In this document: in pieces, positions 17,411 through 28,354 of the stretch
How the letters are laid out: every line of letters begins with the position of its first letter
Numbering within the stretch: the stretch's first letter is position 1
Assembly (NCBI GenBank): GCA_021107635.1
Contig: JAIOSL010000007.1
Coordinates: forward strand, 36,188-100,187
DNA: 64,000 nt
Direction of reading: 5' to 3'
Source: an archaeon
Lineage (GTDB): Archaea; B1Sed10-29; WALL01; JAGHAM01
Program-made: the position numbers and the translations under genes
The notes under the pieces: model-generated
Seen by the model: only the letters and a program-made list of their open reading frames with translations
What the model was told of the DNA's origin: nothing
Database searches by the model: none

Positions 17411-18175
17411 ATGCTCAAATTCGTCACGGATTCGATTGAAACATATCTTGAAGCCTGGCGGCTCATTTTAGTCTTAGGTTTCATTGTTTTTGCTATACTC
17501 CTCTTTCTTACAAGCTTCTTCACTTATGTTGTAGCAGGGGCTGGGTTCATACGCTATTCCTCACTTCTTGGAGGAGAATTCGATTATGTGCAACTATTCA
17601 TTCTTGCAGTAATCTCCCTACTAAGCCTTTTCTGCCTAGCGTTTTTATCCGTAGGAGTGACAATGATAGTCAAACTAAAACGCTCTCTTGACGACATAGA
17701 GTTCCTAAAATTCATAATAAGATTTCCTCGATACATCTCCAGATTAATGCTCTGGTGGATAATACTTGGAGCAATCACCTTCATAATCACTATTTCATTC
17801 AACGCAATCGGTGCACCAACATGGATATCAGCTCTAGCAATGCTATTACTCTGGGCATTTTTTATCTTCCTCCCTCAATCCCTGGTTCTTCATGACACTG
17901 GCTTCTGGGATGCACTTAAAGAAAGCTCTCAATATTGCATGAAAAGACCTGGAGCAGTCATATTGTATTATTTAATCAGCAGTTTCTTGTTGTTTGTTCT
18001 AGTATGCCTAGAAGTAATATTTGGACAGTTTTTTCTGGGAGACATGTCTCTTACATGGATAGCCGTAATAACAAATTCTCTGCTATTATTCATAGTTTTC
18101 ATCCCGTTCCTTGAGATCATCAAAGCAAACGTTTTCGTAGCAAGGTACAGGCTCCTAACACTCGGACTTAAATAA
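17411..18175 (+). CDS. Polytopic membrane protein. Hypothetical.
   Basis: 254 aa with six or more predicted TM helices. Confidence 0.5.
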   Translation: MLKFVTDSIETYLEAWRLILVLGFIVFAILLFLTSFFTYVVAGAGFIRYSSLLGGEFDYVQLFILAVISLLSLFCLAFLSVGVTMIVKLKRSLDDIEFLKFIIRFPRYISRLMLWWIILGAITFIITISFNAIGAPTWISALAMLLLWAFFIFLPQSLVLHDTGFWDALKESSQYCMKRPGAVILYYLISSFLLFVLVCLEVIFGQFFLGDMSLTWIAVITNSLLLFIVFIPFLEIIKANVFVARYRLLTLGLK

Positions 18176-19799: not shown

Positions 19800-19828
19800 C
19801 CCTCCTGAGGCTCTAGGGGTTCAACCCC
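19800..19828. repeat. Left copy of a paired motif block: ccctccYgaggctct followed by aggggttcaacccc.
   Basis: ccctcctgaggctct is at 19800-19814 and aggggttcaacccc at 19815-19828. Both 14-15-mers recur at 20583-20615 in swapped order. Each can form a short hairpin (GGGG-TTCAA-CCCC; CCTC-YY-GAGG). Confidence 0.6.
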
Positions 19829-19849
19829 AGGTCATCTCCCTAAAATAAA

Positions 19850-19885: not shown

Positions 19886-20161
19886 ATGCAAACGTCTGTC
19901 ATAATTGAAAAGGTAGGACACTCTCCAACGCTGAACACTGTGATAATGATAGAACGCACAATAGAAAAAGCTGGCGAACCTCTCACACTCGCAGAACTCA
20001 AGCGGAAACTCCCAAGAAAAGTCATGCACTCCACACTATTAGCAGTGCTTGATTATCTCCAAGAAAGCGGGAAGATAATCATCACCACAAAAGGTGTTGT
20101 CTGGATTTTTGCTCCTAGGAAAGAAATCGAAGCGATGAAAAAGAGGGGCATACAACTATGA
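19886..20161 (+). CDS. Small winged-helix DNA-binding protein, putative antitoxin of a two-gene cassette.
   Basis: 91 aa. LTLAELKRKLPRKVMHSTLLAVLDYLQESGKIIITTKGVVWIF (wHTH-like). Its stop overlaps the downstream start by ATGA. Confidence 0.55.
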   Translation: MQTSVIIEKVGHSPTLNTVIMIERTIEKAGEPLTLAELKRKLPRKVMHSTLLAVLDYLQESGKIIITTKGVVWIFAPRKEIEAMKKRGIQL

Positions 20162-20526
20162 GGAGCATCCAAGTCTTCATAATAGATGAAGCCGAAGAAG
20201 AGTTCAAGCAATTAAACAAGCTGGTCGGCGAACAGCGAGAAAAAGACATCAAAAACTCTGAGGAAATCCAGTTGCTTAAATCGATAAAGAAAAAGAGGGA
20301 CATACTCAAACTAAATCCTGTTTATGGTGATAAGATTCCTCGTAAGTACTGGCCGAAAGAACTTGTCGGAAGATACCAGCTCACTAACTTATGGAGAGTA
20401 GAACTCACGAGCTATTGGAGAATGTTATACACCCTGAGAGGAGATAAACTAGAAGTGCTCTGTTTTGTTATCGAGATATTAGACCACAATCAATACAACC
20501 AGCTCTTCGGATACAAAAAGAAGTAG
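20158..20526 (+). CDS. RelE/ParE/YoeB-superfamily toxin-like protein.
   Basis: 122 aa. The C-terminal half PRKYWPKELVGRYQLTNLWRVELTSYWRMLYTLRGDKLEVLCFVIEILDHNQY matches the RelE/YoeB fold signature, with the aromatic W..R, the YRLVY-like strand and a terminal H..Y. It is translationally coupled to the upstream wHTH gene. Confidence 0.55.
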   Translation: MRSIQVFIIDEAEEEFKQLNKLVGEQREKDIKNSEEIQLLKSIKKKRDILKLNPVYGDKIPRKYWPKELVGRYQLTNLWRVELTSYWRMLYTLRGDKLEVLCFVIEILDHNQYNQLFGYKKK

Positions 20527-20582
20527 AACAAGCTTTCCGCGGAAATTTCCTAGGAAATGTATTGTGTGTGTCGTGGGGATCT

Positions 20583-20615
20583 AGGGGTTCAACCCCTGTT
20601 CCCTCCCGAGGCTCT
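20583..20615. repeat. Right copy of the paired motif block: aggggttcaacccc, then tgtt, then ccctcccgaggctct.
   Basis: Exact 14-mer at 20583-20596. The 15-mer with one mismatch is at 20601-20615. It sits just after the toxin stop at 20526. Confidence 0.6.
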
Positions 20616-20696: not shown

Positions 20697-21428
20697 TCAT
20701 TTCAGGCTGATTCTCATGCCTTTGAAGAGACTCTTGAAATTCTTGTACGTTATCTTCTCGTAAACTTCTTTTGGCAGCTCAAGAGTTTCTAGTTCTGTCT
20801 TAGCTACAAGAGGATAGATGTATGGGGAATCTGAGCCAAACAACAGTTTGTCCGGTCCAGCTTCTTTTATTACTCTTTGCAAGCGGTAGTTGCTTAACAA
20901 GGAGGTGTCAATGTACATGTGCTCATATTTATTCACCAATCTCACGGCATGATGATAATAGCATGTTCCTGCATGGCCAATTATTATCGGGGCAGGGTAA
21001 TCCTTTAAAAGCTCGATATTTTTCACGTGAGTGTGTGGCCTGTGATCGGTATGGATTATCAGAGGAAGCGAATGTTTAGCTGTTTCCTTGAATATCTGGA
21101 GTGCTTTTTTCAAGTGATACTCTCTGGTGTGGATCTTTACTCCTTTGAGACCTAATTCGCGAAGTTCTTTTTCTTCTTGTTTCCAAGTTTTACTTAGCGG
21201 AGTCAGCCTTCCGAATCCAATAAACCTCTGAGGGTACTTTTTGCAGCACTCGTGTATGTAGTTATTCGCATTAGAAAAGTTGTAGTTCATCGCGTTGTGG
21301 CAAAAAGGGAAGACAATTGCTTTATTCACACCAGCAGTATCCATCTTCTCGATTAGTTCTTCGGCATTCTGGTTTTCTGCTATGATTCCACTTCTGCCGC
21401 CTATGTGAGTATGGCAATCAATAAGCAT
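20697..21428 (-). CDS. Amidohydrolase-2 family (TIM-barrel metal-dependent hydrolase).
   Basis: MLIDCHTHIGG (metal-binding HxH), then internal His/Asp ligands (IIHTDH, GHAG). The probable ATG is at 21428 and overlaps the upstream gene end by a few nt. Confidence 0.75.
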   Translation of the reverse strand: MLIDCHTHIGGRSGIIAENQNAEELIEKMDTAGVNKAIVFPFCHNAMNYNFSNANNYIHECCKKYPQRFIGFGRLTPLSKTWKQEEKELRELGLKGVKIHTREYHLKKALQIFKETAKHSLPLIIHTDHRPHTHVKNIELLKDYPAPIIIGHAGTCYYHHAVRLVNKYEHMYIDTSLLSNYRLQRVIKEAGPDKLLFGSDSPYIYPLVAKTELETLELPKEVYEKITYKNFKSLFKGMRISLK

Positions 21429-21432
21429 TTTT

Positions 21433-22767
21433 CTACATCTCCGAGTACACAAAAGTAGGAAGTATTGCTCCTCCCCCGTGAAGGTTAATGACGCTTTTTT
21501 CTGATGCTCGTGCTAGACATCCCTTGAAGCTGTTGTTAAAGACATGAGGGTTGATATTCATCTTTTTATCTTCGAAAACAATGCCATTCTTTTTAACTAC
21601 TGGCAGATCTATCTCATTTGGCTTCAAGTACTCTTGGGCTATCCAGTCTTCTCTTCCCACTGCTCTTTTTACTGCTGCATTCCATTTCTTACTAGGAGTA
21701 TCCAAACCAATCATGACGCCAGCTCCCCCGTATCCAGAGGACGGCTTCAAGACAAATTCATCCTTGTTTTCAAGCAAAAGTTTTTCCAGTTCATGCTCCC
21801 CTTCTTTATACTCTACTGTTTTCTCTGTGGTAGGGTAGGTCCACGGCAAGTGTTTACTTAAAAACTTTTTTTCTTTGGAGTTAAGAGAATTGTCAAAGTA
21901 TCCACTCCTAAGCAGCCATATTATCTTCTTGTTGTTGGGTACAATTGATTGAAAATTGTTTACAATGCATGTCTTCTTGCTTTTCACTGCTGCGAGGAAG
22001 TCTTTTACACTTGCCTTGTGATCCATTAGCTCTGAGACTATTGCTCTCTTGTATACAACATCTATTTCCTTGTTTTTGTACACGAGTTTTCCTGATTTGT
22101 GCTTCAGCTTTCGTGGATCTACTGTAAACGCGTCAAAACCTCTTTTTCTCAAGAAGGTTGCTGTTAACCATATATCACTTTCTATGGGCTCCCAGTCCAC
22201 CAATGCAATCGTGGGAAAGTCTTTCTCTTTCCCAAATTGAGTATAGCACTTTTTTATTTCTTCTGACAAGCTCGTAAGGAGTGAACTTTGCTCTAGCTTG
22301 TAGCTCTCGCTGACTTCTTCCAGAGTAGTCGTTTCCATGAACAGTTGTGCCGTTATGTTTGCGATGGCCATGCTACCTGGGCTATCGGTGTTGAATTCTA
22401 TGAACTTTGGCGTTCCATTCTCTATTATCAGGTCAAGGCGGGATATTGCAACTGGGTTATTGTATCCTGGGTCAATGTGTATAAAAGAAGAGAGAAAAGA
22501 ATCATATCCTAATAGCCTATGAAGTTTATCGTTTCTGGAGTTCTCTCTTGTAATTTTATTGAGTATACCAGCCATTTTCTCTGAAAGTTGTTTGATTTTT
22601 CTTTCCTGATACTTGCTCAGGAAACAAGGTTCAAAAAAGAAAGAATAAGGTTCTTTATTAATCAACAAATTGCTTCGTATGAATGCTTTTTTCATTTCTT
22701 CGATTTCTTGGATTACTCTTTCTTCGTTCTTTGCTACAATGCTCCTATAGTCATCTTCAATAGACAT
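21433..22767 (-). CDS. Glutathionylspermidine-synthetase-like pre-ATP-grasp family amide ligase.
   Basis: 444 aa. RLDLIIENGTPKFIEFNTDSPGSMAIAN matches the GspS-like R(F/L)D....G.PK.(L/I)E.N(A/T)D(T/S)P core. Confidence 0.65.
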   Translation of the reverse strand: MSIEDDYRSIVAKNEERVIQEIEEMKKAFIRSNLLINKEPYSFFFEPCFLSKYQERKIKQLSEKMAGILNKITRENSRNDKLHRLLGYDSFLSSFIHIDPGYNNPVAISRLDLIIENGTPKFIEFNTDSPGSMAIANITAQLFMETTTLEEVSESYKLEQSSLLTSLSEEIKKCYTQFGKEKDFPTIALVDWEPIESDIWLTATFLRKRGFDAFTVDPRKLKHKSGKLVYKNKEIDVVYKRAIVSELMDHKASVKDFLAAVKSKKTCIVNNFQSIVPNNKKIIWLLRSGYFDNSLNSKEKKFLSKHLPWTYPTTEKTVEYKEGEHELEKLLLENKDEFVLKPSSGYGGAGVMIGLDTPSKKWNAAVKRAVGREDWIAQEYLKPNEIDLPVVKKNGIVFEDKKMNINPHVFNNSFKGCLARASEKSVINLHGGGAILPTFVYSEM

Positions 22768-22778
22768 GTATCCACCTC

Positions 22779-24110
22779 TTACAGTTCTAATCCTTCAAGG
22801 AGTTCTGTGTAATCTATAGTTTCTTTCTTTGTTTTGTATGCCCAGTTTAAAGCTATCTCTGCTGCTTCTTTTTTCGAGAGTTCACTGTCTAGGTTAAAGC
22901 CTTTTCTTTTTGCTGAGGAGATTATCCTATCTGAAACCGTTTTCTTTTTCTTGATTAGTGATAAGAGAGGTTTCAGTGCTGGCATATACTCCTTGTGCAG
23001 AGATGGTTTTATGAACCTAAGAAACCTAGTTGTGTACTTCCTGATTTTTTTGCTGCTGAAGCCGTTGTAAGCAGATTCTCGTTGTAGGATGTTTCTTACA
23101 GTGGTGTGGGGAGGGATATATACTACGTTTCCCTCTCTTTTGAATGCTTCTTCAACTGTTATGTCGGCTGGAACTACTTTGTGGAAGTCTTGCTGTATTT
23201 CTCTAAAAAGGAATTTCAGCAGAATGCCTGCTCCAATCATGTACTGCGGGTAGTTTACGTCCATTCCTCTAAGTTCCAGTGTTCCAAGTTTGTTGATTCT
23301 TACAACATTCCAACACAAGTCAAGAGTGTGGGTTTTTTCCATAGTCTTTCCTGGATTTACTCCGGCTTTTTCGATTAACTTTTTTACTCTTTTTTCTCGC
23401 TTCCTTATAGAGTATATCAAGTCTTTTTCTGTTTGTTTGTAAGGGGGGAGGCCGCCTAAAAGCTGCTGGTTTCCATACATGCCTTTTGGGTAGTTTAGTT
23501 GCTTCCCTCCCCTATAATACAGGAGGCGCGAATCTTTAGCTAGGTTTCTGCCGTCGACAAAAGGAGAAGATTGGAGGAAAGAAGTAAGGATGGGATCAAC
23601 TGCTATTGCGACATTGTAACTGTGCATCATGCTCTCCTTTATCTTGGAGTGCTTCATCACTCTGAGGAATCCTTTCTTGTGGTCGAAAATTCCTCTTGGG
23701 AGGGTGTAGTGATAGTGAAACCCCGCGCACAAGAGAGCTTTTCTGAAACGATCTTTTCCAAATACTCTTTGTTGAATCAAATACCAGCGTTTTTTTCTCA
23801 TTGCCGGCTCGTATCTCATTGGATGTGTTGCGAAAGGGAAGACATACATATCCTTTTTTCCGGCTATTTCACAAACATGCTCCAGTGTATGCAGCAAGTC
23901 CGCTGAAGTGTTGTTCACATTTATTGAAGGGTATGATGTCAGTTCTATCCAGCTTTTGTTACATTCTGTCTTAACTCTATTTCTACCTAATTCTTTTCTA
24001 CATTCTTTGATTATTGGATCAACATTTTTTATTGGGATGCCATTGTTATCTAAAATGCAAAATTCAGCCTCGAATCCCGAAAGAGATTTCTTCAATCGTC
24101 GAACACTCAT
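22779..24110 (-). CDS. Glutamate-cysteine-ligase family 2 (GCS2/YbdK-type carboxylate-amine ligase).
   Basis: 443 aa. GFEAEFCILDNNG (compare GVEEEYLLVD). ELTSYPSINVNN (compare EVNTPPC). ATHPM (compare GTHPF). CAGFHYHYTLP (compare ICGMHVHVGVP). Confidence 0.75.
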   Translation of the reverse strand: MSVRRLKKSLSGFEAEFCILDNNGIPIKNVDPIIKECRKELGRNRVKTECNKSWIELTSYPSINVNNTSADLLHTLEHVCEIAGKKDMYVFPFATHPMRYEPAMRKKRWYLIQQRVFGKDRFRKALLCAGFHYHYTLPRGIFDHKKGFLRVMKHSKIKESMMHSYNVAIAVDPILTSFLQSSPFVDGRNLAKDSRLLYYRGGKQLNYPKGMYGNQQLLGGLPPYKQTEKDLIYSIRKREKRVKKLIEKAGVNPGKTMEKTHTLDLCWNVVRINKLGTLELRGMDVNYPQYMIGAGILLKFLFREIQQDFHKVVPADITVEEAFKREGNVVYIPPHTTVRNILQRESAYNGFSSKKIRKYTTRFLRFIKPSLHKEYMPALKPLLSLIKKKKTVSDRIISSAKRKGFNLDSELSKKEAAEIALNWAYKTKKETIDYTELLEGLEL

Positions 24111-24373
24111 ATTATTACAACTAGTTACTGTATCCTTGTGAACTCCTGTATTTAAAGCATGGATGTTTTCAAGGAGGGAAAAGATATGAGTTATGATGAA
24201 CTTTAAAAGTTATCTTTCCCTGTCTTCCAGTGACAATGGGTATGGATCTACATGTTTGGAGTCTAGGCCATCCCGAAATTTTAGTCTAAAACTAGTAAAG
24301 TTCCCTGATACGCTCCTGCGAAAAGCTTTAATTACTCCTCCCCCCAAATCAACCAACACGCGCAGGGAAAAAA

Positions 24374-26407
24374 ATGAAACTTATCATAGCAGAAAAACAA
24401 ATTGCCGCGAGAAGAATTGCCGAAATCCTCTCAAAAGGCAAAGCAACAACAATTCAAGAAAAAAGACTATCTATTTTTGACATAGGCAACGATACTCTAG
24501 TCGTACCACTAAGAGGACACATACTAAGCGTAGACTATCCAAAACAATACAATGACTGGAGAAGCACTAATCTACACTCACTAATCAAAGCACCCATCCA
24601 ATACACGCCCAGCGAAAAAGACATTGTTGCAGTACTACGTAAATATGCTCCAAAAACAAAAGAAGTGATAATAAGCACAGACTTTGATACTGAAGGAGAA
24701 TCAATAGGCAAAGAAGCAGTTGACATCCTACAAGAAAAAAACCCTAAAATCAAAGTAGCCAGGACAAGATTCAGTGCAATAACCACAGAAGAAGTAGACC
24801 ACGCATTCAACAACATATGTGAACTAGATTATAACCTTGCTGATTCAGCTGATGCAAGAAGAGAAATAGACCTATTATGGGGTGCAGTGCTCACACGGTT
24901 CGTTTCACTCTCATCAGGAAGACTAGGACACAAATTTTTGTCAGTAGGTAGAGTCCAAACACCTACACTAGCATTAATTGTTGACCTAGAACTTCAAAGA
25001 CAAGCATTCAAAAAAGAAGCCTACTGGATAATCTCAGCAATCTTTAACAAACAATTCAACTTTGAAGGCACTCATAAAGAAGGTAAATTCTGGAAAGAAG
25101 ACCAAGTCAAACAAATCTACGAAAAAATAAAAGACGAAAAACAAGGTACAGTCACCAAAGTCACAAAAAGTAAGAAAAACCTAAAACCGCCAGTTCCTTT
25201 CAACACTACTGGTTTCCTCCGCGCTGCAGCCAATCTTGGATTAAGTCCATCAAGAGCAATGTCAATAGCAGAAACTCTATATATGGCAGGATATGTTTCA
25301 TATCCTAGAACTGACAATACAGTATATCCTCCTTCACTAAATCTTAAAAAAATACTACAAAAATTTGAGAGTCACTCTGAATTCGGAGAACATGCCAAAA
25401 AAATACTCTCACGCGGCAAAATCACACCAACAAAAGGACCTAAAAAAGCAACGGATCACCCTCCAATTACTCCGATGGAACCAACAACAAAAAGCAGGCT
25501 GGATGCACAACAATGGAAAATCTACGAACTAATAGTGCGCAGGTTCTTTGCCACGCTATCACCGAAATGCGAGCTTAATGTTGTTAAAGTAGAAATAGAT
25601 GTCAAACAAGAACTATTCATATGTAACGGTCAAACCTTAATAGAGCCAGGCTGGAAAGAAGTTTATCCTTATTCTACAGTCAAAGAAGTCCGATTACCTG
25701 AACTTGAAAAAGGAGAAAAAATAGAGATAAAACAGCTCACACTTACTGAAAAAGAAACTAAACCTCCAGCACGATACACACCAGCAGCACTAATCAAAAA
25801 AATGGAGGACCTTGGACTAGGCACTAAAAGTACGCGACCGGAAATCATCAAAAAACTACAATATCGTGCATACATACAAGGAACAAAAAACTATGAACCA
25901 ACCAAGATTGCATTCGCATTAATTGAAGCGTTAAAAAAGCATGCTTCAGACATCACCGATCCAAACATGACCGCAGAACTAGAAAAAGACATGGAAAAAG
26001 TACAAGGAGGAAAAAAGAAAAAACAACAACTCGTCCAATCCTCCCAAACAATGCTTTCCACAGTCCTAGATAAACTATCCTCAAAAAATCAAGAAATAGG
26101 TAACTCGCTCAGAGAAGCAGCAGGACAAACTGATACACTAGCAAGATGTGAATGTGGCGGAGACCTTCGCATAATTCGCTCACGCAAAACAGGAAAACGG
26201 TTCGTAGGATGCACAAACTACGCTAAAGGCTGCAGACATTCATTTCCACTACCCCAAAAAGGTACAGTAACGCAAACAGATAAAATCTGTCCACACTGTG
26301 GTTCTCCAGTAATAAAAGTACGCTTACGGAGAGTCTTTGAAATGTGTCTAGATCCACACTGTGAAACTAAAAAAGACTGGGGCAAAAAAAAGAAAAGCAA
26401 GCAGTAA
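24374..26407 (+). CDS. topA: DNA topoisomerase I (type IA) with C-terminal Zn ribbons.
   Basis: 677 aa. MKLIIAEKQIAARRIAEIL (Toprim). Active-site region GYVSYPRTDNT (catalytic Tyr). C-terminal CECGGDLRI...C and CPHCGSP...C zinc fingers. Confidence 0.88.
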   Translation: MKLIIAEKQIAARRIAEILSKGKATTIQEKRLSIFDIGNDTLVVPLRGHILSVDYPKQYNDWRSTNLHSLIKAPIQYTPSEKDIVAVLRKYAPKTKEVIISTDFDTEGESIGKEAVDILQEKNPKIKVARTRFSAITTEEVDHAFNNICELDYNLADSADARREIDLLWGAVLTRFVSLSSGRLGHKFLSVGRVQTPTLALIVDLELQRQAFKKEAYWIISAIFNKQFNFEGTHKEGKFWKEDQVKQIYEKIKDEKQGTVTKVTKSKKNLKPPVPFNTTGFLRAAANLGLSPSRAMSIAETLYMAGYVSYPRTDNTVYPPSLNLKKILQKFESHSEFGEHAKKILSRGKITPTKGPKKATDHPPITPMEPTTKSRLDAQQWKIYELIVRRFFATLSPKCELNVVKVEIDVKQELFICNGQTLIEPGWKEVYPYSTVKEVRLPELEKGEKIEIKQLTLTEKETKPPARYTPAALIKKMEDLGLGTKSTRPEIIKKLQYRAYIQGTKNYEPTKIAFALIEALKKHASDITDPNMTAELEKDMEKVQGGKKKKQQLVQSSQTMLSTVLDKLSSKNQEIGNSLREAAGQTDTLARCECGGDLRIIRSRKTGKRFVGCTNYAKGCRHSFPLPQKGTVTQTDKICPHCGSPVIKVRLRRVFEMCLDPHCETKKDWGKKKKSKQ

Positions 26408-26443: not shown

Positions 26444-28354
26444 ATGGGGGCAAAAAACACTTTACTCACTCTGCTGATTTTACTTTCATCAGCTTCTGCT
26501 TTATCACTAACTGTGAACACACCATCAAATGGAGAATACTTCAACATTCAAGAAATAAGTTTTTCTGTTAATGCAGAAACAAATATCACTGCAGTAACAA
26601 TCTCAATAAATGACACTAATGAAGCAATGCAAACCACAGACAACACTACTTGGACATACACTACTACCCTATCTGATGGCTACTGGAGCACAACTTTTGA
26701 AGCAACAAACGGTACTGAAAATATTACAGAAACAATAACCTTTTACGTTGATACTATCTCACCAGCAATAACAATCCTATCTCCAGAAAATTCTTCGTAC
26801 ACAGAAACACAACTCAATTTTACCTATCAAGACATAAACCTTGATTCCTGCTTTTACAGTCTCAACGAAAACACAAACCAAACTATCTCATCTAATGGAA
26901 CTGTTTTCTCCGAATCAGGCACACACCACATTGAATTATGGTGTGAAGATCTTGCAAGCAATCAAGGATACGCTCAACAATGGTTTACCATAGAAGAACA
27001 AAACACTAACCAAGCACCATCAATAACAATAGTCAATCCTTCTGGTGGAACACACCAAGATATGGACGAATTCACAGTCAAAGCAACAGATGACACTGAA
27101 ACAAGCATTGATTGTAAATATCAATTAGATTCAGAAGGATGGACCAGCTTTAATCTCAATAACAACACCGAAAAGACTCTAACTTTAGATTATATCGACT
27201 CAGATGGTTCCCATACCATATATGTTAACTGCTCAGATGGCAATCTAACGAGTCAAACTTCTCGATCTTTCACAATAGACACAGAGCCACCAACAGATGT
27301 AACAATAGAAATCAACGATGGAGACGCAGAAACTGATTCAAAAGAAGTAACTCTCACCCTACACGCTTCCGGCGCAAACAAATGCAGACTAAGTGAAGAT
27401 GAAGACGATTGGACTGACTGGAAAACATCAAAGAACGAAGATTACGATTATACTCTTTCAAGTGGAACTGGCAGAAAAACCGTTTACTATCAATGTAAAG
27501 ACAGTGTAGGAAATGACATAACAAGCTATGATTCAATAGAATACACTTTATGTGGTAACGGAAAACTAGATGATGGCGAAGAATGTGATGGAAGTAGGGT
27601 ACGCTTAGGATACATCTGTTCTTCTGATTGTAAAGGTTCATACAAAGATCCAAATTATGAAACAGAAATTTCTCCTCCATCTAACTCTTATGATTCACGA
27701 TCTTATCCAGTTTCACTCAAACCAACAGCAGATAATACAAGCAGTGTCTTCAAAAAAATGTTCAACAACTCAGCTGAAATTTACGAGCTATCCCAGCAAG
27801 CAATCAATGATTTAAAACTTTCTGCTACCATCAAAAAAGAAGAATATCCTTTAATCTCGCTTACTGGAACCTATTCTGGAAATCAAACTCTAGAAAATTT
27901 GATAATCATATTTAAACTTCCAGAAAGCTTTGCTTCTTCATCAGATGACGTAGAAGTAATTACTGCAGCTGAAGTTGAAACACTTAAAGAACTGCTTTAC
28001 TCAGTAAATTTCAAAAACATTAAAAAAGGCGGTTCCTTCTCAGCAACATTCACTGCCAGTCAAAACGGAGACCTAATTGAAATAAAGAATGACATAGAAC
28101 ATCCCACGATACTAGCAAAAATAACTCAAACAGAAACACCTGAACTACTACAAATCCCAACTCAACCAGAAACAACTTCTATTCAGGCAACAGAAAACCA
28201 GACAGAAGAACTTGAACAAGATATGTCTCTTGTAACCGGTGCAATAGTTCTAGGAAGTGCAACTCTATTAGTGCTTGGTTTAGTAATAGTGGTCTTGCTT
28301 GCAGTTGTAGTATTTTTCCTTTCACGCAGAAAGCGTTCCGGGGCAAGAATGTAA
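26444..28354 (+). CDS. Large surface protein. Signal peptide, Thr/Asn-rich ectodomain with many N-x-S/T sequons, C-terminal TM anchor plus basic tail.
   Basis: 636 aa. MGAKNTLLTLLILLSSASA signal peptide. More than 25 NxT/NxS sites. A CGNGKLDDGEECDG module. C-terminus LVLGLVIVVLLAVVVFFLSRRKRSGARM. Confidence 0.6.
   Translation: MGAKNTLLTLLILLSSASALSLTVNTPSNGEYFNIQEISFSVNAETNITAVTISINDTNEAMQTTDNTTWTYTTTLSDGYWSTTFEATNGTENITETITFYVDTISPAITILSPENSSYTETQLNFTYQDINLDSCFYSLNENTNQTISSNGTVFSESGTHHIELWCEDLASNQGYAQQWFTIEEQNTNQAPSITIVNPSGGTHQDMDEFTVKATDDTETSIDCKYQLDSEGWTSFNLNNNTEKTLTLDYIDSDGSHTIYVNCSDGNLTSQTSRSFTIDTEPPTDVTIEINDGDAETDSKEVTLTLHASGANKCRLSEDEDDWTDWKTSKNEDYDYTLSSGTGRKTVYYQCKDSVGNDITSYDSIEYTLCGNGKLDDGEECDGSRVRLGYICSSDCKGSYKDPNYETEISPPSNSYDSRSYPVSLKPTADNTSSVFKKMFNNSAEIYELSQQAINDLKLSATIKKEEYPLISLTGTYSGNQTLENLIIIFKLPESFASSSDDVEVITAAEVETLKELLYSVNFKNIKKGGSFSATFTASQNGDLIEIKNDIEHPTILAKITQTETPELLQIPTQPETTSIQATENQTEELEQDMSLVTGAIVLGSATLLVLGLVIVVLLAVVVFFLSRRKRSGARM

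Follow-up and report, generated by a model that had tools for sequence, protein, structure and literature searches.

A candidate amide-assembly operon of two ligases and a metal-dependent hydrolase in a DPANN-type archaeon

Here we present a three-gene operon found in a stretch of 64,000 nucleotides (nt) of archaeal DNA (contig JAIOSL010000007.1; hereafter the window), in which two ATP-dependent amide ligases of unrelated folds are encoded together with a metal-dependent amidohydrolase. We see about an even chance that the operon encodes a small assembly line for amides, driven by ATP and equipped with a hydrolase of its own, and that its product is a small glutamyl-type peptide or amide. The three genes are arranged as a compact operon, belong to recognisable protein families with the corresponding folds, retain their catalytic residues, and recur in other genomes in modular linkage with one another and with other ligases and hydrolases. 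What the enzymes act on, in which order they work and what the hydrolase is for is inferred, in a mechanism set out after the evidence.

Operon structure

The three genes are co-directional on the minus strand and constitute one operon, with the following features.

22779..24110, minus strand: gene 1, divergent carboxylate-amine ligase of the YbdK/glutamate-cysteine-ligase (GCL) fold, 443 amino acids (aa), from the open reading frame (ORF) list, Pfam/NCBIfam and AlphaFold2
22768..22778, minus strand: spacer of 11 nt between genes 1 and 2 with the ribosome-binding-like GAGGTGGA, read from the sequence
21433..22767, minus strand: gene 2, ATP-grasp amide ligase of the glutathionylspermidine-synthetase/eukaryotic glutathione-synthetase/circularly permuted type-2 group, 444 aa
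20697..21428, minus strand: gene 3, amidohydrolase-superfamily metalloenzyme (Amidohydro_2), 243 aa from the ATG at 21428
24149..24156, minus strand: candidate archaeal TATA box TTTAAATA, about 40 nt 5' of the gene 1 ATG, read from the sequence

The same genes in the same arrangement are called in two independent public assemblies of the same organism, in agreement with the initial annotation, which was also correct about the 11-nt gap between genes 1 and 2. Within this gap GAGGTGGA sits 5 nt 5' of the gene 2 ATG, where it presumably acts as a ribosome-binding motif. The overlap previously drawn between genes 2 and 3 has to be replaced by a 4-nt gap (TAG-aaaa-ATG): independent gene callers start gene 3 at the ATG at 21428 in both of the other assemblies, and an overlap, of 20 nt, appears only if the upstream TTG at 21452 is taken as the start, which yields the longest gene 3 ORF (20697-21452, minus strand, 251 aa). 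The operon spacers contain no small ORF with support. Upstream, a spacer of 263 nt is common to gene 1 and the divergent topA gene, confirming the reported divergent arrangement; it contains TTTAAATA, which we take to resemble the archaeal TATA consensus.

Gene 1: a divergent ligase of the GCL/YbdK fold

The Pfam family GCS2 (PF04107) matches gene 1 with 30.4 bits (gathering score 21), and the match extends over residues 12-151 only, the N-terminal third of the protein. Against the NCBIfam YbdK subfamily the score is 41.7 bits, far short of the cutoff of 176.4, so that gene 1, judged by its scores, is neither a canonical GshA nor a canonical YbdK, and the possibility left open in the initial annotation, that it is the sole canonical gamma-glutamylcysteine ligase of the organism, finds no support there. 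The NCBIfam gshA models give 17-20 bits, with cutoffs of 332-437.

A single-sequence search of solved structures returned nothing useful for gene 1, and a profile of 32 homologs matched E. coli YbdK (1r8g) with an E-value of 4.5e-8. The AlphaFold2 model has a predicted local distance difference test (pLDDT) score of 92.4, and its best Foldseek matches in the PDB are YbdK (1tt4/1r8g, template-modelling (TM) scores 0.64/0.79), plant GCL (2gwc), GshF and E. coli GshA; glutamine synthetases and Pup ligase rank far behind these GCL-type matches. All 32 aligned family members have E16, E56, H132, H134, E279 and R281, and at least 90% of them share G12 and E14; the family motifs GxExE, E, HxH and GTLExR align with GIELE, MLEL, HVH and GTVEVR of YbdK. 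We take these residues to have the metal- and phosphate-binding roles of their counterparts in GshA and YbdK. Together, motifs and model matches lead us to read gene 1 as a divergent but apparently active member of the GCL/YbdK fold. With the YbdK/GCS2 ligases and GCLs of known structure (1r8g, 1tt4, 2gwc) it shares the fold and the GxExE, E, HxH and ExR motifs; it differs from them in its low identity (about 13%), its partial Pfam match, an additional ~70 residues relative to YbdK with a modelled helical C-terminal region, its own set of genomic partners, and its membership of a DPANN-centred clade.

Word-indexed and exhaustive searches yielded 169 relatives of gene 1 at 38-50% identity, which, where named, come from Woesearchaeota, Nanoarchaeota, Diapherotrites or Aenigmarchaeota; among 1.84 billion proteins the family has 507 cluster representatives. 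Of 32 clade members sampled, no more than 19 reach the Pfam GCS2 family at E<=0.001. On this sequence evidence the clade is small, divergent and almost confined to DPANN archaea, and since the homologs of gene 1 come from DPANN lineages, we read the host as a DPANN-type archaeon as well.

Several observations on individual relatives (proteins and loci from our searches carry P and L numbers) may be recorded here. P0156 (690 aa) has a 245-aa N-terminal membrane or sensor-like region, and P0200, P0205, P0206, P0213 and P0226 (560-590 aa) have a C-terminal extension of about 180 aa. When these longer relatives were inspected for domain fusions hinting at a substrate, their extra regions had no recognisable family. 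One contig carries two GCS2-like paralogs (448 and 450 aa) about 1 kb apart (L079, 4716-6005 and downstream). Many of the public bins with gene 1-type genes (L011, L014, L017-L019 and others) bear the title 'uncultured Methanosarcinales archaeon', and a few bear bacterial names (Aminicenantes, Sulfurovum); mislabelled taxonomy or contaminated bins seem a better explanation of these titles than true hosts.

Gene 2: an ATP-grasp ligase

Gene 2 scores 34.1 bits against the Pfam family GSP_synth (PF03738; cutoff 29.3), 31.7 bits against CP_ATPgrasp_2 (PF14403), just under the cutoff of 32, and 26.1 bits against GSH_synth_ATP, a marginal pass at a cutoff of 25. The curated NCBIfam glutathione synthase models give only 17-24 bits with cutoffs of 272-408 (23.6 against 408 for one model). 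No CHAP amidase domain is matched in gene 2 by Pfam, and the ligase domain alone makes up the 444 aa.

As with gene 1, the single-sequence search of solved structures returned nothing useful. The AlphaFold2 model (pLDDT 94.3) finds its best Foldseek matches in the human, yeast and plant (homo)glutathione synthetases (2hgs, 8fbz, 3kal, 1m0w; TM about 0.7), followed by 3n6x, E. coli GspS (2io8), the fungal ligase Cp1B (9cjn) and YgiC/YjfC. The family profile ranks the same relatives differently, with 3n6x leading (E 7e-20), then GspS (4e-7), Cp1B, YgiC and human glutathione synthetase (1e-4). Residues R110, D112, E124, N126, K280, K341, G348, G354 and Q378 are invariant in homolog sets of 17 and 28 sequences, and R420 is invariant in the former and at least 90% conserved in the latter. 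The conserved elements are thus R110-x-D112, E124-x-N126, K280, K341, a glycine-rich loop and Q378, and the R-x-D and E-x-N spacing agrees with what we take to be the spacing in GspS. Because the high-confidence models have GCL and glutathione synthetase/GspS folds and the metal- and nucleotide-binding motifs are conserved, both ligases look catalytically competent.

Three groups of known enzymes invite comparison with gene 2. It has the same pre-ATP-grasp ligase fold as GspS (2io7-2iob) and the paralogs YgiC and YjfC, and the operon repeats the GspS synthetase/amidase design of a ligase and a hydrolase for the same bond type. The CHAP amidase domain of GspS is missing here, however, its place being taken by a separate, unrelated metalloenzyme of the TIM-barrel family, and the profile similarity between the ligases is weak. 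YgiC and YjfC themselves are described as lacking GspS activity in the passage of PMC12506659 that cites Sui et al. 2012. The eukaryotic (homo)glutathione synthetases are the best structural match, and gene 2 is, as in the glutathione pathway, partnered with a GCL-fold enzyme; its identity to them is only 13-17%, their rank in the profile search is low, and gene 2 stays below all the curated models. The COG2308/alpha-E/transglutaminase systems, to which 3n6x belongs, contain the nearest solved relative by sequence and share the neighbourhood logic of ligases plus a hydrolase, but the partners here are a GCL-fold ligase together with Amidohydro_2, FGase or a RimK-like protein. The window neighbours scanned, namely the GCS2-like and Amidohydro_2 genes, topA, CTP synthase and the two-gene cassette, include no alpha-E, transglutaminase or Anbu partner, and neither the alpha-E nor the transglutaminase family was seen among the annotated conserved neighbours of related loci.

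Gene 3: a probable metal-dependent hydrolase

Gene 3 is matched by Pfam Amidohydro_2 (PF04909) with 78.4 bits against a cutoff of 26.4, and by TatD_DNase with 39.8 bits. Its nearest solved sequence is 3cjp, annotated as 'predicted amidohydrolase, dihydroorotase family' (2e-12), followed by the decarboxylases LigW and ACMSD. All 17 family members compared, from archaea and bacteria, have D4, H6, H8, R74, K98, H126, H152 and D200, so the HxH/K/H/H/D metal-site pattern (H6, H8, K98, H126, H152, D200) is retained at the level of sequence. HxH/Lys/His/His/Asp is the binuclear hydrolytic pattern of the amidohydrolase superfamily, unlike that of the mononuclear ACMSD-type decarboxylases. Although the solved relatives of gene 3 include decarboxylases, its conserved Lys suggests a binuclear hydrolytic site, and hydrolase chemistry is likely. 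The three family assignments of the initial annotation are therefore sound: all three proteins fall into the expected families above Pfam gathering scores, two of them have high-confidence models, and catalytic residues are conserved.

In DPANN genomes Amidohydro_2 is usually followed by a helical protein of about 135 aa, which belongs to no Pfam family and carries the C-terminal motif LAQNICILRILK (L007, 6051-6458, minus strand; L036, 7546-7956, plus strand; L024, 10825-12120, plus strand; and six other loci). In L024 the two are fused into one protein of 431 aa. The ~135-aa partner was sought throughout the window and is absent from it. A proposed homology between this archaeal protein and the bacterial DUF2203 protein found in the same position was ruled out (hhalign probability 0.5%).

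Modular neighbourhoods in other genomes

Gene neighbourhoods of the gene 1 clade were examined in 80 genome loci and 6 others, in a view of +/-8 kb around each match, using tblastn, ORF clustering and Pfam annotation; counts are over 82 loci, and duplicate contigs were merged when counting lineages (L024 = L117, L017 = L093, L047 = L111). The commonest tight partner of the GCS2-like gene is a hydrolase of the FGase family (PF05013), present in about 38 of the 82 loci. Amidohydro_2 tightly adjoins it in 11 loci, a RimK/MptN-like ATP-grasp protein of about 300 aa in 8, and a gene 2-type ATP-grasp in 6, and at least one of these four lies within 300 nt of the GCS2-like gene in 42 loci. FGase and Amidohydro_2 never occur together in one locus, a mutual exclusion which suggests that they are alternative hydrolases. 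The window itself contains, over its 64 kb, no FGase, RimK-like ATP-grasp, mechanosensitive channel or TreT-type glycosyltransferase gene.

The gene 2-type ATP-grasp adjoins the GCS2-like gene in six independent lineages (the window, L024, L017, L014, L047/L051 and L096). The exact triad of GCS2-like ligase, ATP-grasp and Amidohydro_2 was found in the window and in L024, with identities of 43%, 27% and 31% for the three proteins. The same scheme of a ligase, a second ligase and a hydrolase appears with swapped parts as FGase/ATP-grasp/GCS2 in L014, L047 and L051, and as GCS2-RimK-Amidohydro_2 in L068. A further cluster (L017, 7983-13099 = L093, 4178-9294) combines the GCS2-like gene with a ThrC-like pyridoxal phosphate (PLP) enzyme, a GNAT protein and the ATP-grasp, and with a convergent RimK/MptN-like ATP-grasp; the threonine-synthase-like PLP enzyme scores below curated cutoffs. 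Glycogen synthase and deoxyhypusine synthase genes were seen in the vicinity of this cluster.

In two Woesearchaeota-type clades, about 41% identical to each other, mechanosensitive-channel genes adjoin GCS2-like or Amidohydro_2 genes (L036, 10041-15243, L054, L043 and L077; L007, 7251-7934, and L008, 6378-7043, both minus strand). One of these clades also has a TreT-type trehalose synthase and a glycosyltransferase-phosphatase fusion nearby. The channel and trehalose-synthase neighbours hint at a context of osmoadaptation.

In a reciprocal search, a profile of the DPANN ATP-grasp was run against metagenome contigs and the resulting 51 loci were annotated by hidden Markov models (HMMs) and clustering. 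The DPANN GCS2-like gene again adjoins the ATP-grasp in L093, L096 and L117. In L094, L095, L097, L102 and L105 the ATP-grasp is immediately followed by Amidohydro_2 with no DPANN GCS2-like gene, and the ATP-grasps of these five loci are 30-48% identical to one another and to the archaeal ones. With the window and L024/L117, where a gene 3-type gene also lies directly 3' of the ATP-grasp, this makes ATP-grasp plus Amidohydro_2 the most widely conserved pair, present in archaea and bacteria.

More distant relatives of the ATP-grasp (23-28% identity) occur in bacterial clusters of four genes, located at L088 and on the P0125 contig, which encode a weak RimK-like protein, the ATP-grasp, a classical 368-aa GCS2 and Peptidase_C26. 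These clusters have in common with our operon an ATP-grasp of the same family, a GCS2 ligase and a hydrolase; they differ in that the GCS2 is of the classical type (Pfam 196 bits) and the hydrolase has a class-I amidotransferase fold. The ligase-ligase-hydrolase logic is thus repeated with non-homologous parts. In another bacterial clade (L102, L105, L110 and L141), the gene order is citrate synthase, SucC, SucD, ATP-grasp, Amidohydro_2 (present or absent among these loci), DUF2203, pyruvoyl arginine decarboxylase, CN_hydrolase and PAD_porph (for example L102, 5801-12336). Here PAD_porph is of the agmatine-deiminase type and CN_hydrolase is N-carbamoylputrescine-amidase-like, so that the clade has a complete arginine-to-putrescine set and is a putrescine-synthesis neighbourhood.

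Because neighbourhoods of this kind recur, a functionally linked module of two ligases plus a hydrolase, as postulated in the initial annotation, is supported by comparison of gene order. The genes do co-occur elsewhere, as the triad in L024 and as pairs in further loci. What needs qualification is the partnership of precisely these three: the habitual partner of the gene 1 clade is FGase and not Amidohydro_2, the exact triad is rare, and the firmest association is that of ATP-grasp with Amidohydro_2.

Proposed mechanism and alternatives

In the amide-assembly reading, gene 1 would phosphorylate a carboxylate and join it to an amine to form a first amide; to judge from all characterised relatives, this carboxylate is most probably the gamma-carboxylate of glutamate. 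Gene 2 would then activate the free carboxylate of this product as an acyl phosphate and join the activated acyl group to a second amine, which would be an amino acid or a polyamine. Gene 3 would cleave the gene 2 amide again, serving turnover, regulation or recycling, in parallel to the amidase domain of the bifunctional glutathionylspermidine synthetase/amidase. Possible products include compounds resembling glutathione or glutathionylspermidine, and peptide osmolytes.

FGase is a family of N-acyl-glutamate hydrolases, Peptidase_C26 comprises gamma-glutamyl hydrolases, and RimK/MptN-like proteins are glutamate ligases; these partners, together with the GCL fold of gene 1, suggest glutamyl chemistry. 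The GspS-type fold and the putrescine context of one clade suggest that the second amine is a polyamine, and the modelled likeness of gene 2 to glutathione synthetases suggests an amino acid. Overall the leads from genomic context, towards polyamines, osmolytes and glutamyl chemistry, are weak. Gene 3 may be regarded as an 'eraser' of the gene 2 product because the gene 2/gene 3 pair is deeply conserved and because of the analogy with the GspS amidase.

A number of points weigh against this interpretation. The exact triad was seen in two lineages only, and about half of the GCS2-like loci, many of which lie on short contigs, have none of the four partners nearby. Since ATP-grasp and Amidohydro_2 are also paired where the DPANN GCS2-like gene is missing, gene 1 may not be the supplier of gene 2. 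The polyamine context is limited to one bacterial clade, whose ATP-grasps are 59-77% identical, and could be plain synteny; in another clade the ATP-grasp is accompanied by two PmbA/TldD peptidases, a hint of peptide substrates; and in a large Planctomycetes clade the one locus examined showed no linkage. Amidohydro_2 also includes decarboxylases, LigW and ACMSD being among the solved relatives of gene 3, and its assignment as a hydrolase is based on a residue pattern and not on a structure. Finally, the in vitro activity of the YbdK family is itself weak and uncertain.

The PmbA/TldD pairing, and the position of 3n6x as the nearest solved sequence relative of gene 2, bring up a different kind of substrate: one or both ligases might attach amino acids or an amine to a ribosomal peptide or a protein, at its C-terminal carboxylate or one in a side chain, in the manner of RimK and Pup ligase, with the hydrolase removing the modification. 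Circularly permuted type-2 ATP-grasp enzymes of the 3n6x type were reportedly predicted by Iyer and colleagues in 2009 to act on peptides or proteins, the RimK-like partners in 8 loci fit such a role, and the ~135-aa helical protein that usually travels with Amidohydro_2 could be a target or an adaptor. No conserved candidate substrate gene adjoins the ligases, however, and the operon spacers offer no small ORF in its stead; the ~135-aa protein is missing from the window, and its fusion with the L024 hydrolase suggests a subunit of that enzyme and not a target; and the alpha-E, transglutaminase and proteasome partners expected of such systems were not found among the operon-flanking genes scanned. 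We therefore consider protein or peptide modification unlikely. The osmoadaptation context could instead indicate a compatible-solute module, whose osmolyte, a small glutamyl amide or a dipeptide similar to N-acetylglutaminylglutamine amide, would be degraded by the hydrolase after an osmotic downshift. In its favour are the channel genes in the two clades, the trehalose synthase and glycosyltransferase-phosphatase fusion in one of them, and the GNAT acetyltransferase, RimK-like ligase and PLP enzyme added in the L017/L093 cluster. Neither channel nor trehalose-synthase genes occur in the window, though, the context could be synteny inherited within two clades, and there is no amidotransferase; this proposal, a special case of the amide-assembly line and not a true alternative to it, seems to us quite unlikely.

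The structural matches of both ligases raise the question of glutathione. A review of archaeal thiols lists GshA-family hits in DPANN genomes and no archaeal GshB (PMC7278568), which leaves room for a glutathione-like compound. The product might then be a glutathione- or glutathionylspermidine-like gamma-glutamyl (thiol) peptide or a peptide-polyamine conjugate, made and recycled by gene 1, gene 2 and a dedicated metal amidase; the poor scores against curated glutathione-pathway models and the pattern of partners make this a minority possibility, and a distinctly doubtful one. If it were true, the operon would represent the first complete glutathione-type pathway in Archaea and a prokaryotic relative of eukaryotic glutathione synthetase in an ancestral context. 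In the plainest form of the idea, gene 1 would be a gamma-glutamylcysteine ligase, gene 2 a glutathione synthetase and gene 3 an unrelated neighbour. The GCL fold of gene 1, the eukaryotic synthetases as best structural matches of gene 2, and the GshB gap, which a non-canonical synthetase would fill, can all be cited for it. Yet both ligases score far below all curated gshA/gshB models (41.7 against 176.4 and 23.6 against 408), the sequence of gene 2 is nearer to 3n6x and GspS than to glutathione synthetases, most GCS2-like loci have FGase and no gene 2-type ATP-grasp nearby, and gene 3 is tied to gene 2 across deep divergence, which argues against a chance neighbour; we hold plain glutathione biosynthesis to be very unlikely. 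Much the same applies to a salvage or catabolic pathway, in which the first step would fall to gene 3, as the opening of a cyclic amide or the cleavage of a peptide or amide taken from the host, and the ligases would re-use the resulting acid and amine. DPANN archaea do rely on scavenged metabolites, the HxH/K/H/H/D pattern is typical of dihydroorotase/hydantoinase-type enzymes, which open cyclic amides, and the nearest solved relative of gene 3 is annotated to the dihydroorotase family. The hydrolase nevertheless comes last in the gene order, and its replacement elsewhere by non-homologous hydrolases (FGase, Peptidase_C26) fits a product hydrolase better than a specific ring-opening step, so that salvage, too, appears very improbable. 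It could be argued, lastly, that the genes are adjacent through genome compaction alone, since unrelated genes are tightly packed in small archaeal genomes and the exact triad is limited to two lineages. With pairwise linkages recurring across 27-48% identity, in archaea and bacteria and with swapped non-homologous parts, the absence of any functional link is most improbable.

Novelty and significance

All three protein families and the logic of the neighbourhood are already known. The study by Iyer et al. (2009, Mol Biosyst 5:1636) is said to have predicted this type of ligase-plus-hydrolase module in general terms by comparative genomics, so the novelty claimed for the module in the initial annotation applies to the variant and not to the principle. 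What is new is the DPANN-centred, divergent GCL/YbdK-fold clade with its modular set of partners, the ATP-grasp/Amidohydro_2 pair conserved across archaea and bacteria, and this combination of three genes. We found no paper in the literature characterising the gene 1 clade, the ATP-grasp/Amidohydro_2 pair or the three-gene combination.

DPANN genomes are tiny and have few biosynthetic pathways, yet many of them keep the divergent ligase together with changing ligase or hydrolase partners; this retention suggests that the product of the gene 1-clade modules is probably important to its hosts. Identifying it would tell what the hundreds of unannotated proteins of this clade do, and could reveal a new archaeal low-molecular-weight thiol, polyamine conjugate or peptide osmolyte. 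It would also test the long-standing prediction that pairs of unrelated amide ligases together with a hydrolase build peptide-like metabolites. In addition, the gene 2-type ATP-grasp may bear on the origin of eukaryotic glutathione synthetase.

Flanking genes and the repeat-flanked cassette

The operon is flanked by housekeeping genes identified by Pfam and NCBIfam, namely CTP synthase, an MtaB-like methylthiotransferase and topA, and a cassette of two genes lies beside it.

24374-26407, plus strand: archaeal topA (NCBIfam PRK07220, 804 bits)
19886-20161 and 20158-20526: ORFs of the two-gene cassette, overlapping by 4 nt (ATGA)
19803-19833 and 20571-20601: direct repeat of 31 nt bracketing the cassette, copies 84% identical

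The GC content of the operon (0.40-0.41) is within the range over the window (0.36-0.42). Given this composition, the housekeeping flanks and the presence of the gene 1 family across many DPANN lineages, the accessory or horizontally acquired origin suggested earlier for the operon was dropped. An anti-phage defence role was likewise set aside, since PADLOC defence models matched neither the three operon proteins nor those of the adjacent cassette. Two further ORFs, one of 636 aa adjoining topA (26444-28354, plus strand) and one of 254 aa adjoining CTP synthase (17411-18175, plus strand), have no match in Pfam or PADLOC and none above noise in NCBIfam.

The cassette had been described as a repeat-flanked toxin-antitoxin pair. 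The flanking 31-nt repeat is real, and the window has just two copies of its 16-nt core CTAGGGGTTCAACCCC, where 0.03 would be expected; the toxin-antitoxin identity is weak, with the second cassette protein scoring 20 bits against Pfam ParE_like, below the cutoff of 24.4. A tRNA-derived attachment site was considered for the repeat, and no tRNA gene was found anywhere in the 64 kb. The core CTAGGGGTTCAACCCC looks similar to a tRNA T-arm.

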